A stretch of 64,000 bases of DNA from assembly GCA_963740085.1 (NCBI GenBank), contig CAVUCU010000001.1, positions 576,001-640,000 on the forward strand, given 5' to 3'. Position 1 is the first letter of the stretch. Every line of letters starts with the position of its first letter. The position numbers and the translations under genes are program-made. Positions 7,895 to 59,022 of this stretch are shown one piece after another. This DNA is from Nitrospirota bacterium. GTDB taxonomy: Bacteria > Nitrospirota > UBA9217. The notes below the pieces were generated by a model. It was given only the letters and a program-made list of their open reading frames with translations, was not told the DNA's origin and made no database searches.

Positions 7895-7907
7895 GGAACC
7901 TCCATAA

Positions 7908-7985
7908 GACAGGAGACAGGAGACAGGAGTCAGGGGAAAAGCTCTACCTGCTCTCCTCTGGCTTCTGGCTCCCGGCTCCTGACTT
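7908..7985. repeat. inverted pair of heptamer arrays (CAGGAGN type)
   Basis: CAGGAGA CAGGAGA CAGGAGT CAGG ... CTCTGG CTTCTGG CTCCCGG CTCCTGA. Confidence 0.75.
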
Positions 7986-9053
7986 CTTCTCATCAGCTAG
8001 TTTTTCAACCTCACCTACAAGCACATCCGCCAGGTCCTTCTCGTCGAATTTCTTTGAGATCTCGCCGCGTTTGAAGAGCAGTCCGACACCCTTGCCGCCG
8101 GCAATGCCAACGTCTGCCTCTCGCGCCTCGCCGGGTCCGTTCACCACACACCCCATGACCGCTACCGTGATCGGCGTCTTGATATGCGCCAGTCTCTTTT
8201 CTACTTCCTGTGCAAGACCGATGATGTTGATCTCGGTCCTTCCGCAGGTGGGACAGGAAATGATATTCACCCCGCGTTGGCGGATCTTGAGCGACGCCAA
8301 TATCCCGTAAGCAGCGCGTACTTCCTCAACCGGGTCAGCGGTGAGAGAAACACGCATGGTATCACCAATGCCCTCCGCCAGCAGGATGCCGAGTCCGACG
8401 CTCGATTTGATCGTGCCTGAGAAAAGCGTTCCCGCCTCCGAGATGCCGATGTGCAGCGGATAATCCGACTTTATCGAGAACAGCCGGTAGGACGCAACCG
8501 TAGTCATCACATCCGAGGCCTTGAGCGAAACCTTGAGATTGGCGAAGTTCAGGTCTTCGAGGATGCGGATGTGACCAAAGGCGCTCTCAACGATCGCCTC
8601 GGGAGTGGGGTGCCGGTACTTTTCGAGCAAATGCCTTTCAAGGGACCCCGCGTTCACCCCGATGCGAATCGGGATGCCTTTGTCCTTGCAGGCCCGCACT
8701 ACCTCGGAAACCTTGTCCTTTCCGCCGATGTTGCCGGGATTGATCCGGAGCCCGTCCACGCCCTGTTTAACGGACTCAAGCGCCAGACGGTGGTCAAAGT
8801 GGATGTCGGCGATGAGCGGAAGCCTCGTGCCCTTTCTGATCACACCGAGTGCCCTCGCGGCTTCTTCATCCGGCACGGCGAGCCGTACGATCTCGCACCC
8901 GGCCTGTTCCAGGCGGCTGATCTGATCGAGCGTCTTGGCGGTGTCACGCGTGTCCGTGTTGCACATGGATTGAACAGCGACCGGTGCGTTGTTGCCGATC
9001 GTGACGGACCCGAGGGTGATCTGTTTGGTCTTTTTTCTAATGATACGTTCCAC
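7944..9053 (-). CDS. ispG: HMBPP synthase
   Basis: VQSM, IADIHF, RINPGNI, RIGVNAGSL, SCPTCGR, MGCVVNGPGEA; GTG start at 9053 is approximate. Confidence 0.95.
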   Translation of the reverse strand: MERIIRKKTKQITLGSVTIGNNAPVAVQSMCNTDTRDTAKTLDQISRLEQAGCEIVRLAVPDEEAARALGVIRKGTRLPLIADIHFDHRLALESVKQGVDGLRINPGNIGGKDKVSEVVRACKDKGIPIRIGVNAGSLERHLLEKYRHPTPEAIVESAFGHIRILEDLNFANLKVSLKASDVMTTVASYRLFSIKSDYPLHIGISEAGTLFSGTIKSSVGLGILLAEGIGDTMRVSLTADPVEEVRAAYGILASLKIRQRGVNIISCPTCGRTEINIIGLAQEVEKRLAHIKTPITVAVMGCVVNGPGEAREADVGIAGGKGVGLLFKRGEISKKFDEKDLADVLVGEVEKLADEKKSGAGSQKPEESR

Positions 9054-22640: not shown

Positions 22641-22746
22641 TCTCGCAGAGGCGCAGAGAACGCAGAGTTAAATCAAAACTTTCGAGTCTTGGTTCTATCC
22701 CAGAACGGTTTAAACTTTTCTCTGCGAACTCTGCGCCTCTGCGAGA
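22641..22746. repeat. inverted pair of nonamer arrays
   Basis: TCTCGCAGAGGCGCAGAGAACGCAGAG ... CTCTGCGAACTCTGCGCCTCTGCGAGA (25/27 complementary). Confidence 0.85.
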
Positions 22747-25462: not shown

Positions 25463-25476
25463 GATTTAACGGCAGG

Positions 25477-25560
25477 CGCCAGGGTTCAGGTGCCAGGGTA
25501 CAGAAATTACTTAACCCTGGATCCCGGACCTGTGTCCCTTGACCCTTGACCCCTGTCCCC
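25477..25560. repeat. inverted pair of heptamer arrays (CAGGG type), empty
   Basis: CAGGGTT CAGGTGC CAGGGTA CAG ... CCCTGGA TCCCGGA ... CCCTTGA CCCCTGT CCCC. Confidence 0.72.
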
Positions 25561-26115
25561 TTTTTTTACTGCATTCGCCTTCTTCATCGCGAAGCGTTCC
25601 TGCGTTGATATTCCTTTCCCACCCGCCTTGCGGTACAGCACCGCTGCCTGATCTTTCCTGCCCATGCGTTCGCTCGCCCTGCCGGCCCAGTAGTACGCGG
25701 TGCCGACCAACATCCCGGAGGTTGGATAGCTCTCGGGTATTTTAAGGAATTCGGCCACCGCCTCGGAGTTCCTGCCGAGGAGAAGGACGCAGAACCCTAT
25801 CCAGTACTGGGTCTGCGCCCGCTCACCGGGCTTCTGCTCTTGCAAAGCCCGATGGTATGCATCGAGGGCATGCTGGTAATCGGCCAGACGGAAAAAACTA
25901 TCGGCGATGCGGGTATGGAGAAGGCCCGGGGAAATAGCCCGGGACGGAGAGGAAAGTACTGCTTGATACAAACGAATCGCGTCCGGGTACCGGCCTTGCG
26001 AGAACATCTGGTCCGCTTTTATATATTCGCGGGGAACACGTTGCCCGCTCGCTGCATGCGGCAGGCCGGAGAGCGCCAGGAAAATAAGGGGGACAAATAT
26101 CAATTTCGCTTTCAT
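25507..26115 (-). CDS. secreted tetratricopeptide repeat protein
   Basis: Signal peptide MKAKLIF; several TPR-like helical repeats. Confidence 0.75.
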   Translation of the reverse strand: MKAKLIFVPLIFLALSGLPHAASGQRVPREYIKADQMFSQGRYPDAIRLYQAVLSSPSRAISPGLLHTRIADSFFRLADYQHALDAYHRALQEQKPGERAQTQYWIGFCVLLLGRNSEAVAEFLKIPESYPTSGMLVGTAYYWAGRASERMGRKDQAAVLYRKAGGKGISTQERFAMKKANAVKKGDRGQGSRDTGPGSRVK

Positions 26116-27764: not shown

Positions 27765-27883
27765 ATCCGCAGATTACGCAGATTTCGCAGATGGAGGTCA
27801 GGATAAAATATTTTATTGCTTTACGTCCTGACTAAAGAGTCATTTCTTTTGTTTTTTCTGCGTATTCTGCGTAATCTGCGGAT
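27765..27883. repeat. inverted pair of nonamer arrays
   Basis: ATCCGCAGATTACGCAGATTTCGCAGA ... TCTGCGTATTCTGCGTAATCTGCGGAT. Confidence 0.82.
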
Positions 27884-33073: not shown

Positions 33074-33926
33074 TTAGCGTTCACCCTTCGCAATCCTGCT
33101 GACTGTAGAGTAATGAAGACCTAGATGATCAGCAATCTCACTCTACAGATTACCATACTGTTCCACCGCCTTGACGATCGCACCCCGCCTCTTCCCCGGA
33201 TTCATCCGTACCTTCGAACTGAAGAGCTTCTCCAGCGACGGACGATTCGAATATCGCTGGCTCCGGGGAATGCTCAGGAATATCCTTGTGCTTTTTGAGA
33301 TGGTCGACGAGCTTATCAACGAAGCCTTCCTCCCCCAGAAGAGCCTGACCCCTTACCTCGGCCCAGATGGAATTCTGCCCGATCCCCGATTGAACGAACG
33401 TTCGGTACTCTTGCTCCGCCTTACCCCGTTTCCGGCTGAACTGGCCCAGCACCCAGTCTGTAGTCAGGCACAAATGGGGCTTTGCTTTGCCCGCAGTAGC
33501 CAGGTAACTTGACCATTTCCATTCCTCCGGCTTCTCGACCATCCTGGCCCGCACGGGATTCAGGACGACGTACCGGCAAACCTCCAGGAGATGACTGTCT
33601 TTCTGGATCAAGATGGCCTTGTACCTGCCCTGAAAGAGATGGCCTGTCCTTCCATGCCATTTATTGAAGAGCTGGGTATAGACACCGTTCAACTACCGCA
33701 TGCCGAGGGACAGATTGCCGTCAGGGGTCTCAATGAGAAAGAGATAGTGGTTCGTCATGAGACAGTAGCCATGGCAAATCCAATTATAGCGTTTATTAAA
33801 GTGCTGGAGGGTGTTCAGGAAGTTTTCGCGGTCTGTGTCATCCTTGAAGACCGGCTTCTTCTCGTTTTCCCGAGAAGTGACATGATAAACTGCGCCGGGA
33901 TATTCTATGCGGAGGGGGCGAGAGAT
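33074..33926 (-). pseudogene. decayed REP-associated tyrosine (Y1/HUH) transposase
   Basis: (M>I)SRPLRIEYPGAVYHVTSR, damaged HUH (NHYL), GHLFQGRY, RYVVLNPVRA, WSSY; two in-frame TAGs, a frameshift, and a C-terminal HTH EIADHLGLHYSTVSR. Confidence 0.85.
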
Positions 33927-55848: not shown

Positions 55849-56667
55849 TCAGGGCCGTCGGGACGCGAGGATGTTCAGCGCCATTACGTGCGTCGCATCG
55901 TTCTTGCTTGCGAGCAGCGGCGCGGTCCGTCCGAGTCCCGCGACAATGTGGTCGAGTGATGTGCCTTCGAGATCGGTTATCACGCCGTCCGCTTCTTCAA
56001 GGATCAGCATCCCTGCCGCGTAATCAAAAGCGCGAGAGGCCGTTGCCGTGGCGAACACGCTGATGGCTCCGGAAGCGAGGTAGGAAAGGTCGAGGGCAGT
56101 GGACCCGAAGCACCGTGTGCGCTTAGCCTCCGTGAGAAGCGGCATGAGGACAGGCAGGTCGGTCTTCGGCGATGAAGCTTCGTAAGCCACGATGGTGATG
56201 CCCTGAGTGGCCGCGGTCCTGATCCGCTTGCCGTTCTTGTACGCACCCTGGGCGCGTACGGCCCAGAACTCGTCGCCCACGGCGAGATTGACGACATACC
56301 CCACGGCCAGCGTGGAAAGCGTTTCATCGTTCAAGAGCGCCAGCGACGTGGAAAAGAACGGGATCCCGCTCTTGGCATTGTTGCTCCCGTCAATGGGGTC
56401 CACGAGCACGATCTTCTTTCCGTCGCCGAACTTCCTGATGCCGAGCTCTTCGGAGATAAGCGTAAAGGATTCGCCCTGCCGGTGCGCCTTTACGAGCGCG
56501 GCAATGACGATATCCTCGGCCCACTTGTCCACGGGGAAGGTCTTGTCCCCGCCGGCGCCCTTCCCGAGCGGTACCATGCCGCCTTCTCTCGCGAGGATGA
56601 CGGACAAACCGTCGCGCATTTTTTTGCCGATGCCTTTGAATACTTCCAGCCATCCGTTATCAGTCAT
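55849..56667 (-). CDS. inositol monophosphatase/fructose-1,6-bisphosphatase family protein
   Basis: VDKWAE, SEE, VDPIDGSNN, FDYAAG. Confidence 0.88.
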   Translation of the reverse strand: MTDNGWLEVFKGIGKKMRDGLSVILAREGGMVPLGKGAGGDKTFPVDKWAEDIVIAALVKAHRQGESFTLISEELGIRKFGDGKKIVLVDPIDGSNNAKSGIPFFSTSLALLNDETLSTLAVGYVVNLAVGDEFWAVRAQGAYKNGKRIRTAATQGITIVAYEASSPKTDLPVLMPLLTEAKRTRCFGSTALDLSYLASGAISVFATATASRAFDYAAGMLILEEADGVITDLEGTSLDHIVAGLGRTAPLLASKNDATHVMALNILASRRP

Positions 56668-56700
56668 TGATAAACTCCTTGTTGGGTGAAGGTAATTGTG

Positions 56701-56730
56701 GGTACAGGGTTCAGGGTACAGGGGTCAGGG
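56701..56730. repeat. heptamer tandem array, left arm (CAGGGNN)n
   Basis: CAGGGTT CAGGGTA CAGGGGT CAGGGTA. Confidence 0.85.
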
Positions 56731-56751
56731 TAAAGCGACGACAGACAATAA

Positions 56752-57114
56752 TCAAGATAATGATTTAATCAGCCCTTGAAGCATTTTCATCGTTTCATCT
56801 CTCGTAGTATTTATTTGATCAAACTCTGTGACTGGTATATAGCCGATATCTCGTGCTAACAATAAATAAGTATCAAGTTCTCCTAATGAACCCTTTGCAA
56901 TAAATAAGAATTGAAGATACTCTTTTCTATGATTCCGTTCATAACCCTCTGCGATATTAGCCGGAACTGACGCCGCAGCTCTCCGAATCTGAGATGTTAA
57001 GCTGAAAATCTCCTCTTTCGGGAATTTCTTTGTTGTACGATATAGGTTAAGTGTCAACTCATAGGCGCGCTGCCATACCTTCAAATCCCTGAATCCCGTT
57101 ATTTTCTTCTCCAT
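56752..57114 (-). CDS. four helix bundle protein (23S rRNA-IVP/bAvd-like family)
   Basis: FRDLKVWQ, FPKEE, QIRRAAASVPANIAEG, GSLGEL; AT-rich relative to its neighbours. Confidence 0.93.
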   Translation of the reverse strand: MEKKITGFRDLKVWQRAYELTLNLYRTTKKFPKEEIFSLTSQIRRAAASVPANIAEGYERNHRKEYLQFLFIAKGSLGELDTYLLLARDIGYIPVTEFDQINTTRDETMKMLQGLIKSLS

Positions 57115-57139
57115 CGCCTCACCTGCGTATGAAAATTTT

Positions 57140-57208
57140 CCCGAACCCTGTCCCCTGCACCCTGAACCCTATGTTTTCCTGTCCCCTGCGCCCTGAACCC
57201 TGACCCCT
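57140..57208. repeat. heptamer tandem array, right arm (NNCCCTG)n
   Basis: AACCCTG TCCCCTG CACCCTG AACCCT ... TCCCCTG CGCCCTG AACCCTG ACCCCT; inverted relative to 56701..56730. Confidence 0.85.
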
Positions 57209-59022
57209 CTATAGTAGTTCGTTATTCCTTCTGCTGCTTTCTTCGACATCCCCTTTACTGCGGCCAGTTCATCGGTGGTTGACTGCTTGATCTTCTCCAG
57301 ACTCCCGAAATGGCGAAGCAGCGCCTTTTTCCTTGCCTCGCCGATGCCGGGAATATCGTCAAGCTCGGACTTGATAGCCCGCTTCTCGCGCAGCTTCCGG
57401 TGGTAGGCGATCGCGAAGCGGTGCGCTTCGTCGCGCACACGCGCGACCAGGTGTGTGGTCTGGCCCGTGGGCTCGAGGATGATCGGCTCGTCCACGCCGG
57501 GCAGGAAGACCCTTTCGAACTCCTGCTCAAATCCCTCCCGCCCGCTCCGCGCCTTGGCAAGACCGATAACATCGGGCCCTTCGATCCCGAGCTCCCTCAG
57601 CACCTCGAGCGCCGCGTTCAACTGGCCTTTGCCGCCGTCGATCAGGATCAGGTCAGGCAGTATACCCTCTTCTTTTGCCCTTGTATAGCGCCGTCTGATC
57701 ACCTCTGCCACGCTCGCGAAGTCATCCTGGCCCTGGACGCTCTTGATCTTGAACCGCTTGTAGTTCCGCTTGTGCGGCAGGTTGTCCTCGAAGGACACCA
57801 TGCTGGCGACCGCTTCGGTGCCCTGGATGTTCGAGATGTCGAACGCCTCGATCCTGCGGGGAAGGTTCCTGAGCCCCAGCTCTTCCTGGAGGCGCAACAG
57901 GACCCGCTCCTTGCTCTTGCGCGAGAGCAGGTGCTCGCGAAGCGACTGGCCCGCATTGTCCGATGCCATCTGGACCAGTTCGCGCTTCCTGCCCCGCTGC
58001 GGCACGAGAACCTCCGCCTTCGCTCCGCGCTTCTCCGTGAGCCAAACCTCGAACAGCTCCCGGTCAGGCACGTCAAAAGGGAGAAGCACCTCCGCGGGCA
58101 CGATCATCTCCTTTGCGTAGAACTGGCGCAGAAAATCGGCCATGACTTCCTCGTCCTCCATGCCGTGCACGTCGGGGATGGTGAAATCTTTTCTGCCGAG
58201 CAGCATGCCGTTCCGGATAAAGAGCGTCTGGATGTTCGCGTGGCCTCCTTCAGAGACCATCCCGATCACGTCCTGGTTCTCAAATCCCGGCGAGATGATC
58301 TTCTGCTTTTCAAAGGCCCCTTCGATCTTCGCGATCCGGTCACGCAGCTCCGCCGCGCGCTCATACTCCATCATTTCCGATGCCACTGCCATGCGCTGCT
58401 TCAGCAGGTCGAGCAGGTCCCGATTCTTGCCTTCGAGGAACAGGCGCACCTGGCCGACCACGTCGCGGTACGCTTCCTTGTCCACCTCACCCGAGCACGG
58501 CGCCATGCACCTGCCGATCTGATTCTGCACGCACGGTCGCTCGGGCCTGTCTTTTTTGAACTCCTTCCTGCACGTTGCGAGAGGGAAAGTACGCCGGATC
58601 AGCGAAAGCAGCTCCCACATTCCTCCCGCGGGGACATAGGGGCCGTAGTAGAGCGCGCCGTCCTTCTTCAGGCCCCGGACCACGTCGAGGCGGGGATACT
58701 CTGCCTTGATGTCGAACCGGAGATAAGGATAGTTCTTGTCGTCTCGGAGGATGATGTTGTAACGGGGGTGGTGCTTCTTGATAAGGGTGGACTCCAGGAT
58801 CAGCGCCTCGAGCTCGGTGTGGGTAATAATGGTCTCGATGTCGGCGATCTGGCGGACCAGCATCTCGGTCTTTTCTCCCACGGCGCCCTTCTGAAAGTAC
58901 GAGCGCACCCGGTTCCAAAGGGAGAGGGCCTTGCCGATGTAGATCACGTGACCCTTTACATCCTTCATGAGGTAGACGCCCGGCGAATCCGGAAGATTCT
59001 GAAGTTTTTCTTCGAGGTTCAT
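57169..59022 (-). CDS. uvrC: excinuclease ABC subunit C
   Basis: PGVYLM, YIGKA, PRYNI, IEAFDIS, IDGGKGQ, RDEAHRF, HhH. Confidence 0.97.
   Translation of the reverse strand: MNLEEKLQNLPDSPGVYLMKDVKGHVIYIGKALSLWNRVRSYFQKGAVGEKTEMLVRQIADIETIITHTELEALILESTLIKKHHPRYNIILRDDKNYPYLRFDIKAEYPRLDVVRGLKKDGALYYGPYVPAGGMWELLSLIRRTFPLATCRKEFKKDRPERPCVQNQIGRCMAPCSGEVDKEAYRDVVGQVRLFLEGKNRDLLDLLKQRMAVASEMMEYERAAELRDRIAKIEGAFEKQKIISPGFENQDVIGMVSEGGHANIQTLFIRNGMLLGRKDFTIPDVHGMEDEEVMADFLRQFYAKEMIVPAEVLLPFDVPDRELFEVWLTEKRGAKAEVLVPQRGRKRELVQMASDNAGQSLREHLLSRKSKERVLLRLQEELGLRNLPRRIEAFDISNIQGTEAVASMVSFEDNLPHKRNYKRFKIKSVQGQDDFASVAEVIRRRYTRAKEEGILPDLILIDGGKGQLNAALEVLRELGIEGPDVIGLAKARSGREGFEQEFERVFLPGVDEPIILEPTGQTTHLVARVRDEAHRFAIAYHRKLREKRAIKSELDDIPGIGEARKKALLRHFGSLEKIKQSTTDELAAVKGMSKKAAEGITNYYRGVRVQGAGDRKT

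Follow-up and report, generated by a model that had tools for sequence, protein, structure and literature searches.

A four-helix-bundle gene framed by inverted heptamer arrays between uvrC and an inositol monophosphatase gene in a Nitrospirota bacterium

The junction between uvrC and an inositol monophosphatase family gene in a Nitrospirota bacterium carries a small AT-rich PF05635 gene that lies between inverted arrays of a 7-nt unit. We interpret the gene and its arms as an old, vertically inherited, promoterless cassette that would form a stem of the intervening-sequence (IVS) type in the transcript, a reading that we hold at a probability of about 0.55. The association of inverted arrays with PF05635 genes is far beyond chance, the gene and its arms are inherited together at the uvrC junction in at least five genomes, and the intact protein is under strong purifying selection. 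An earlier note on the window (the whole 64,000-nt stretch of DNA that was analysed) had taken the feature for a possible new mobile or RNA-level element, an interpretation that our results support in part.

Results

A PF05635 gene lies between inverted heptamer arrays downstream of uvrC

The features of the junction are listed in Table 1. The 120-aa product of the small gene matched PF05635 (23S_rRNA_IVP) over its full length (E-value 3.5e-40, 137 bits, cut-off 33.8) and TIGR02436 ('four helix bundle protein'; 131.9 bits, cut-off 24). Both scores exceed the curated cut-offs and place the protein in PF05635/TIGR02436, as claimed in the earlier note, which had linked it to the IVS protein and to relatives of Avd. 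The note's description of an AT-rich four-helix-bundle gene within inverted period-7 arms next to uvrC was likewise accurate. uvrC, the PF05635 gene and the Inositol_P gene are all encoded on the minus strand, and the site is outside any 23S rRNA gene.

Table 1. Coordinates of the cassette, its neighbours and the related gene-less hairpin in the window
Feature	Position	Strand	Remarks
Gene-less hairpin, CAGGGNN heptamer class	25473..25561		Between a TPR gene and a RecN-like gene
Inositol monophosphatase (Inositol_P) family gene, downstream neighbour	55849..56667	-	Own AAGGAG ribosome site
Downstream arm	56695..56735		(CAGGGNN)n on the plus strand, C-rich on the gene's strand; period 7, 4.7 copies
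Four-helix-bundle gene (PF05635 / TIGR02436)	56752..57114	-	Intact, 120 aa; 38.6% G+C against 59.8% in the flanks
Spacer	57115..57139	-	Shine-Dalgarno-like GGTGAGG, 4 nt ahead of the ATG
Inner upstream arm (block B)	57140..57170		Near-duplicate of block A; period 7, 4.0 copies
Outer upstream arm (block A)	57178..57212		(NNCCCTG)n on the plus strand; period 7, 4.4 copies
uvrC	57169..59022	-	UvrC_RNaseH_dom (5.5e-58), GIY-YIG, HHH

Read on the gene's strand, two G-rich heptamer blocks precede the gene and one complementary C-rich block follows it. Tandem Repeats Finder (TRF) delimited the period-7 arrays at 56700-56732 (GGGTACA, 4.7 copies), 57143-57170 (4.0 copies) and 57178-57208 (4.4 copies); the upstream arrays together form (NNCCCTG)n over 57140-57212, of which block A is G-rich (GGGGTCAGGGTTCAGGGCGCAGGGGACAGG) on the gene's strand. 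The array encodes the C-terminus of UvrC, i.e. its final 13 or so codons (RGVRVQGAGDRKT, 57169-57210). In relatives that lack arrays, UvrC ends in unrelated short tails. At the other end, the downstream arm stops about 30 nt short of the start of the Inositol_P gene.

The arms constitute terminal inverted repeats. Positions 56706-56731 are 92% complementary to 57145-57170 over 26 nt (inner pairing), and positions 56695-56729 are 80% complementary to 57178-57212 over 35 nt (outer pairing). In the predicted fold of the sense-strand RNA, the arm stem closes both the minimum free energy and the centroid structures (z -2.59), with block A in the closing stem. The fold predicted for the antisense strand, also with a closing stem, is at least equally stable (z -3.67). 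We found no sigma-70-like promoter on either strand between 56500 and 57400, no minus-strand terminator-like site in the cassette region, and no match to any Rfam family in 56400-57500. Logan DNA contigs of X1 and X2 matched the sequence exactly but were broken at the arms, and the Logan RNA contigs of X19 and X20, which derive from relatives (85-95% alike), span the two neighbours and not the cassette; no joint was listed among the matches.

Inverted arrays accompany PF05635 genes within the genome and across phyla

The genome to which the window belongs (7 contigs, 3.46 Mb, 98.5% complete) has Nitrospirota MAGs as its closest named kin and contains eight PF05635 loci. Inspection of the flanks by eye revealed inverted short-tandem arms at all eight, each with a different unit (e.g. 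CAGGGNN, GATGCGTN, GAGTTCG, AATGCAA and CTAAAGTG). Three of the eight genes are intact; the others are frameshifted (three), truncated (one) or interrupted (one), the last by an 84-aa GIY-YIG ORF. A role in defence was considered and rejected, as PADLOC matched none of three PF05635 copies. The six PDDEXK_3 (GxxExxY) genes of the genome were also all found by eye within inverted arrays, mostly of 8-9-nt units. Since these unrelated genes share the layout, the arms need not depend on the PF05635 protein, and the layout is not confined to four-helix-bundle genes.

To look beyond this genome, 80 PF05635 loci from many phyla were collected from genome_contigs with an alignment of family members, only two of which sit at a uvrC junction. 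For 78 of these loci (two were dropped for short flanks), the upstream flank was aligned locally with the reverse-complemented downstream flank, and flanks of different loci were paired to provide a null. Complementarity exceeded the 99th percentile of this mismatched-partner null at 38 loci, with a period of 7 in 29, 8 in seven and 9 in two. Local alignment replaced duplex energies computed from 160-nt flanks, which we discarded because the mismatched-partner null came close to them in stability (median -62 vs -82 kcal/mol). Using a stricter measure of periodicity on 82 loci, including the three intact copies of our genome, we detected arrays in both flanks of 42 loci, compared to 4 of 316 control intervals shifted by 800-1000 nt. 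The check proposed in the earlier note, whether homologous genes are enriched in flanking inverted periodic arrays, is therefore answered in the affirmative both within the genome and across phyla.

The arms of these loci measure about 32 nt. Median distances are 26 nt from the end of the upstream arm to the start codon and 16 nt from the stop codon to the downstream arm. The gene was poorer in G+C than its flanks at 79 of 83 loci. Both neighbours could be called with a longest-ORF rule at 42 loci and were co-directional at 37, and at 35 of these 37 sites the PF05635 gene was oriented in the direction of its neighbours. Furthermore, the arrays have a preferred handedness: the G-rich array was located 5' at 59 loci and 3' at five, with no skew at eight. 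Because a G-rich 5' array holds on both strands at once, this handedness is independent of the direction of the gene. The number of units per arm ranged from 2.6 to 19.6 (median near 4.3) without a sharp peak, and we rejected the idea of five units for a pentamer.

Gene-less hairpins of the same kind are dispersed in the genome

The earlier note had reported an empty inverted pair of the same heptamer class at 25477..25560. This pair is real and extends slightly further (Table 1). Both genes beside it are on the minus strand, and the TPR ORF runs into the arm. Its predicted fold has an energy of -45.3 kcal/mol (z -3.47), and none of 200 shuffled sequences was equally stable. In a TRF analysis of the whole genome, inverted array pairs within 1.5 kb numbered 53 and direct pairs 40, so that, as a crude count, inverted pairs are modestly in excess. 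The gap is 130 nt or less in 41 of the inverted pairs. The gene-less pairs have the G-rich array 5' in 34 cases, the reverse in three and no skew in four. We rejected hairpin polarity relative to the neighbouring genes (10/16) as a test of orientation, since 'G-rich arm first' reads identically on both strands and makes the test uninformative. nuoK, a tRNA and a HEAT-repeat gene were also rejected as cargo, because the arrays around each of them belong to two separate hairpins, each complete within its own adjacent spacer.

The unit, and not a specific pairing, is conserved in the arms

Alignments of the two arms at 59 loci contained 439 mispaired columns, 245 of them of the transversion type. 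G:U-type mispairs were not in excess on the sense strand (89 sense vs 105 antisense) and so nothing marks the stem as a feature of RNA; the earlier proposal of an event at the RNA level finds no confirmation here. Permuting the order of units within one arm lowered the complementarity with p ≤ 0.05 at only one of 30 loci, and the real score was above the shuffled mean at 15 of 30. Unit order is not mirrored between the arms of these loci, and the complementarity is accordingly that of any two inverted arrays of one unit. This behaviour fits the 'slip-tolerant' stem of the earlier note, in which the arms could pair in any register. Given that both tests gave null results, we conclude that what is conserved is the identity of the unit in both arms rather than a specific pairing.

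Arms that serve as arrays of binding sites fit these results equally well as a slip-tolerant stem. One could picture the two arms as convergent arrays bound, as single- or double-stranded nucleic acid, by an oligomer of the four-helix-bundle protein, with the gene-less hairpins as further sites. Besides the irrelevance of unit order and the lack of a G:U signal, such a partnership is favored by a unit that stays constant between the two arms and across orthologues even as its variable positions drift, and by the fixed polarity of the arrays at PF05635 loci and gene-less pairs alike. The two relatives of the protein with structures in the PDB, 2gsc and 2rld, were both deposited with five chains. 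Protein distance and unit distance are weakly correlated (Mantel r 0.144, a value that 24 of 2000 permutations attained). Unit distance averages 0.41 at protein identities of at least 60% and 0.50 below, and loci of different records whose proteins are 80-85% identical have a unit in common (e.g. L078 and L090). A precedent is provided by the Ssn nucleases, encoded by small genes flanked by their own dispersed target hairpins (PMC11893778, in the part consulted). However, units are unrelated below about 60% protein identity, and the best association between a residue and the unit core (mutual information 0.575) was barely above the 95th percentile (0.546) of the maximum in shuffled data, with kinship uncorrected. 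The PDDEXK_3 genes share the layout. Finally, gene-less units matched the arms of resident genes in 34 of 41 cases (control mean 26.3, maximum 32) in a test that is over-permissive and uninformative. Altogether, we consider it unlikely that binding by the protein is what the arms are for. An amino-acid-to-base code was rejected, the associations being weak and confounded by relatedness.

The cassette is old at the uvrC junction and has probably lost its gene in congeners

To reconstruct the history of the site, the junction was fetched from relatives with the Inositol_P gene as an anchor. uvrC and the anchor were both present at 21 loci, the states of which were assigned by eye (Table 2).

Table 2. 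States of the junction between uvrC and the Inositol_P gene
State	Loci	Number
Filled: PF05635 gene with CAGGGNN arms	own, G001, G020, G013	4
Gene-less hairpin of related heptamers, same genus	G003, G005, G006	3
Upstream arm only, still forming the uvrC tail	L021, L026, L033	3
Hairpin of another unit class	L031, L042	2
Unrelated ORF with CGCAGAG arrays	L022, L030	2
No arrays, spacers of 44-293 nt	L019, L023, L025, L029, L032, L034, L035	7

The MAG record behind L044 adds a fifth filled copy. The G001 copy is 74% identical in DNA, yet its protein could be aligned over residues 1-74 only, and the gene is thus apparently frameshifted. The G020 protein is 77.5% identical (tblastn), and the G013 orthologue has a hairpin of CGCAGAT units nested in it, which interrupts the gene. 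The filled copies, those of G001, G020, G013 and L044 included, all combine CAGGGNN arms with an upstream arm split by an A-rich linker. This shared peculiarity indicates a single ancestral insertion. Two intact orthologues (L043 and L044) gave a dN/dS of 0.055, and the comparison of our copy with L043/G020 gave a pN of 0.122 at a pS of 0.772, i.e. with synonymous sites saturated. These values show that the protein is kept by selection where it survives. Conversely, the gene-less alleles within the genus are most simply explained as deletions.

A search of our genome and 60 relatives revealed no near-identical second copy. The DNA matches above 80% identity were the locus itself and a 73-base piece of the G013 orthologue (84%); full-length orthologues are about 74% identical to our copy. 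There is accordingly no sign of recent movement, and no target-site duplication could be defined from the comparison of junction sequences; the mobility contemplated in the earlier note is not supported as a current event. Two other cassette sites have allele series of a similar kind. At the site of the PF05635 locus L007, G006 has a gene-less hairpin with the AATGCAA unit, G005 has identical arms around another filling, and G004 has other arms. The site of L002 is filled by a GATGCGT-armed cassette in our genome, G001 and G003, and is occupied in G004, G005 and G006 by AGTTCNG-type hairpins, i.e. by a different unit. These allele series show that such junctions were colonised repeatedly. The search for empty and filled alleles called for by the earlier note was therefore successful at the uvrC junction and at two further sites in congeners. 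Of its idea of a cassette gained and lost between heptamer arms, loss is borne out at the uvrC junction by the gene-less alleles, and gain is not, the insertion there being old and orthologous across genera.

The occupation of one junction by different unit classes among congeners would be expected of a mobile DNA element, in which the arms are the terminal inverted repeats of a non-autonomous cassette, the gene-less copies are miniatures, and both are moved in trans, e.g. by Y1 transposases of the REP-associated type. The nested insertions, namely the CGCAGAT hairpin in the G013 gene and the GIY-YIG ORF in one of our copies, point in the same direction, and our genome has four Y1_Tnp matches, one of which scores 76 bits on NF047646 (REP_Tyr_transpos), just under the cut-off of 80. 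Nevertheless, the inverted repeats beside the RAYT-like Y1 genes begin with GGGGTCA and are neither tandem nor dispersed (eight matches genome-wide, six of them beside Y1 genes). Cut-and-paste movement would not predict the sense orientation seen at 35 of 37 sites, unless antisense copies were rapidly lost, and it is further weakened by the lack of near-identical copies and of a definable target-site duplication. We regard transposition at the DNA level as quite improbable.

Quadruplex repeats and retroelement remnants explain less

Each arm contains four to five GGG tracts spaced by 7 nt. With at least four G3 tracts between aligned ORFs and near a stop codon, the arms may form G-quadruplexes, like the regulatory GGGAATC-type arrays known from Xanthomonas and Nostoc, which occur between aligned ORFs as convergent inverted pairs (PMC4692102, in the part available). 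If the arms were repeats of this kind, the gene would be between them by accident. Yet most units that flank PF05635 genes are incapable of forming quadruplexes (AATGCAA, GTGAATC, AGTAATA and others), and the gene is associated with arrays at 8/8 loci here and at 42/82 elsewhere (4/316 in controls), making this explanation very improbable. That the gene is the Avd of a decayed diversity-generating retroelement (DGR) is hardly credible: its matches to bAvd (PF22296, 29.9 bits) and DivGenRetAVD (NF033474, 36.4 bits) fall under the cut-offs of 40 and 80, the 98.5%-complete genome has no RVT_1 match and no template or variable repeat is apparent, and we rejected this identity.

Discussion

The junction holds a PF05635 ORF between two inverted arrays of one short, mostly 7-nt unit, and such loci are widespread. 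We propose that cassettes of this class insert sense-wise between co-directional genes, here onto the final codons of uvrC, and carry arms whose pairing, possible in any register, can close a long-range stem. No promoter or terminator is predicted for the cassette itself, and its transcription would be by read-through from uvrC. Once transcribed, its G-rich 5' arrays would pair with the C-rich 3' array. By analogy with the 23S IVS, the resulting stem may be a substrate of RNase III, which would separate the insert from the flanking messages. The PF05635 protein is related to Avd, a nucleic-acid binder, and might act on the units of its own arms. As the loci examined show, copies decay by frameshift, truncation, interruption or loss of the gene, leaving gene-less hairpins behind.

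A wider scheme can be built on this IVS-type cassette. PF05635 proteins would bind, with sequence specificity, the 7-nt units on either side of their own genes, and a gene with its arrays would form a self-perpetuating IVS-type element that colonises operon junctions and rRNA genes; its gene-less offspring would make up much of the long-noted bacterial excess of heptamer repeats, and the GxxExxY nuclease cassettes would be a parallel branch. We put this forward tentatively, as an idea more doubtful than probable.

The link between PF05635 and heptamers provides a testable hypothesis for both the family and the repeats. PF05635/TIGR02436 is a very large family (a single search returned 6,983 relatives of similar length) of uncharacterised function, for which the arms offer a candidate nucleic-acid target. 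For the repeats, the link offers a candidate origin of the class. The 'intervening sequence' design of rRNA genes would, with this link, reach ordinary operons as well. Furthermore, for annotation the link explains the odd repeat-encoded C-terminal tails of uvrC and other genes, the breaks of assemblies at cassette junctions, and the small AT-rich ORFs found inside conserved operons.

Comparison with known systems

Like REP/REPIN systems, the genome has many short intergenic hairpin repeats and RAYT-like genes. It differs in that its hairpins consist of tandem units of many classes, its cargo genes are not transposases, and its RAYT-like genes are flanked by other inverted repeats. The PF05635 protein shares its fold family with the DGR accessory protein Avd, and the structure paper on bAvd reportedly describes nucleic-acid binding and a pentameric form. 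Unlike in a DGR, the genome encodes no reverse transcriptase, and the Avd models score under cut-off.

We found no paper that ties PF05635 genes to inverted heptamer arrays outside rRNA in the literature searched, supplements excluded. In the parts of these papers that were available, PF05635 is equated with Avd in DGRs (PMC10053308), is merely named as a domain (PMC10910872), or, as 23S_rRNA_IVP, is called functionally uncharacterised and reported from insertions in the 16S and 23S genes of CPR bacteria (PMC11270868). TAACTGA heptamer arrays have been described in a paper whose available text has neither 'four helix' nor 'intervening' (PMC4679880).

On the side of the repeats, the available part of Rehm et al. 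(2015) describes GGGAATC-type heptamer arrays in Xanthomonas and Nostoc, with a preference for about four units, that are located between aligned ORFs, where they approach or overlap stop codons; most are transcribed, and each genome has 70-75 pairs in a convergent, inverted arrangement (PMC4692102). The authors state, citing a 2007 survey, that heptamers are over-represented among bacterial simple repeats, and call detailed literature nonexistent (PMC4692102, same part). Our arrays resemble theirs in the 7-nt unit with a GGG core, the roughly four units per array and the convergent pairs, as well as in their site between aligned ORFs and their overlap with the end of the upstream ORF; the convergent handedness of PF05635-associated arrays is the arrangement described for Xanthomonas in that part of the paper. 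The same text treats the arrays as quadruplex-forming simple repeats without a link to a gene family, and neither 's23' nor 'xcc0516' appears in it (PMC4692102). In contrast to those repeats, most unit classes that flank PF05635 genes lack G tracts.

The closest functional precedent is, by analogy, the Ssn/SRM pair. According to the part of Chenal et al. (2025) consulted, the products of the Ssn GIY-YIG nuclease genes bind a dispersed hairpin repeat (NTS/SRM), and 42% of the homologues are flanked by it on both sides (PMC11893778). Both systems, as far as that part goes, consist of a small gene with a hairpin repeat in both flanks that is also dispersed in the genome. Unlike Ssn, the PF05635 protein is not GIY-YIG, and it has a different fold and no known nuclease motif. 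Furthermore, SRM is one conserved motif in the text consulted, whereas the unit of PF05635 loci changes from locus to locus. Binding is established for Ssn in the same source, whereas PF05635 proteins are putative binders.

In the architecture of gene and arms, the cassette compares with the ORF-bearing 23S IVS of Coxiella burnetii, which has a 28-bp stem of terminal inverted repeats that is cleaved by RNase III in vitro, and three tandem GACAGAT heptamers, variable in number, ahead of its ORF; the Leptospira 23S IVS is cited as an ORF-bearing case in the same portion of the paper (PMC4990558). As in the 23S IVS thus described, a homologous PF05635 ORF is placed in the loop of an inverted-repeat stem, tandem heptamers of variable copy number precede it, and the ORF is decay-prone and oriented in the sense of the host transcript, in which the cassette is presumably included. 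Two differences stand out: the IVS is found in helix 25 or 45 of 23S rRNA and the cassette at an operon junction in mRNA, and both arms of the cassette are entire arrays of units. The cassette is best classed as one of the IVS type that lies outside rRNA; at the uvrC site it is old and was inherited vertically, and it has gene-less derivatives.

Handedness and reading of the arrays

Elements bearing inverted short tandem arrays show a fixed handedness, with the G-rich array lying 5' on either strand. This orientation was observed at 59 versus 5 of the four-helix-bundle (PF05635) loci collected across phyla and in 34 versus 3 of the gene-less pairs in the genome under study. The ORFs of two upstream genes, one encoding a TPR protein and the other being uvrC, run into a G-rich array, and therefore the repeat encodes the C-terminal tails of both proteins. 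The window contains three additional inverted pairs as well as lone arrays.

Array-bracketed and nested genes

By visual inspection, all six PDDEXK_3 (GxxExxY) genes of the whole genome are surrounded by inverted arrays, whose units are mostly 8-9 nt long (e.g., CGCAGAGG, GACACTGA, CGCGAAGA and GGAGAAA). This layout is that of the four-helix-bundle genes, though the proteins are unrelated. In two other genera (L022 and L030), the uvrC junction is taken up by an ORF, unrelated and about 200 aa long, that adjoins CGCAGAG-type arrays.

One four-helix-bundle gene of the genome (L008) is itself interrupted by an 84-aa ORF whose product matches the GIY-YIG catalytic domain model PF01541 at 57.9 bits, placing a small selfish-looking gene inside a second one. 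At the uvrC junction of a relative (L028, genome G013), an insert of about 190 nt containing CGCAGAT-type arrays as an inverted pair breaks the orthologous four-helix-bundle gene after the EYLQFL codons, suggesting that gene-less hairpins can enter new sites. Furthermore, nuoK, a tRNA gene and a HEAT-repeat gene each have a complete hairpin in both flanking spacers, with one unit class per gene, indicating that adjacent spacers can hold sister copies.

Coordinates of array-associated features in the window and in the genome (contigs C1, C4, C5 and C6).
Feature	Location	Details
TPR gene reading into G-rich array	window 25507-25561	
uvrC reading into G-rich array	window 57169-57210	
Inverted pair	window 7907-7987	AGACAGG/TCTGGCT
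Inverted pair	window 22644-22744	CGCAGAGAA/CTCTGCGAA
Inverted pair	window 27768-27880	CGCAGATTA/TTCTGCGTA
Single period-7 or period-8 arrays	window 16419, 17858, 19852, 23729, 61060	
PDDEXK_3 genes	C1:300665, C1:766507, C1:1186218, C1:550, C4:111294, C1:323030	
L008 gene	C4:482705-483267	
Spacer hairpins, nuoK	C1:974079-974480	
Spacer hairpins, tRNA gene	C5:99074-99295	
Spacer hairpins, HEAT-repeat gene	C1:946026-946953	
Y1_Tnp match	window 33567-33890	(-), in-frame TAG
Y1_Tnp match	C1:370350	
Y1_Tnp match	C5:70076	
Y1_Tnp match	C6:13188	

Y1_Tnp matches

The genome contains four Y1_Tnp matches, including the window copy, and the copies on C5 and C6 are identical. The best of them scored 76 bits with the REP-associated tyrosine transposase model, for which the cut-off is 80. 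Two of the four are flanked by inverted repeats starting with GGGGTCA, a 7-mer also found as one unit of the arms of the uvrC-junction cassette.
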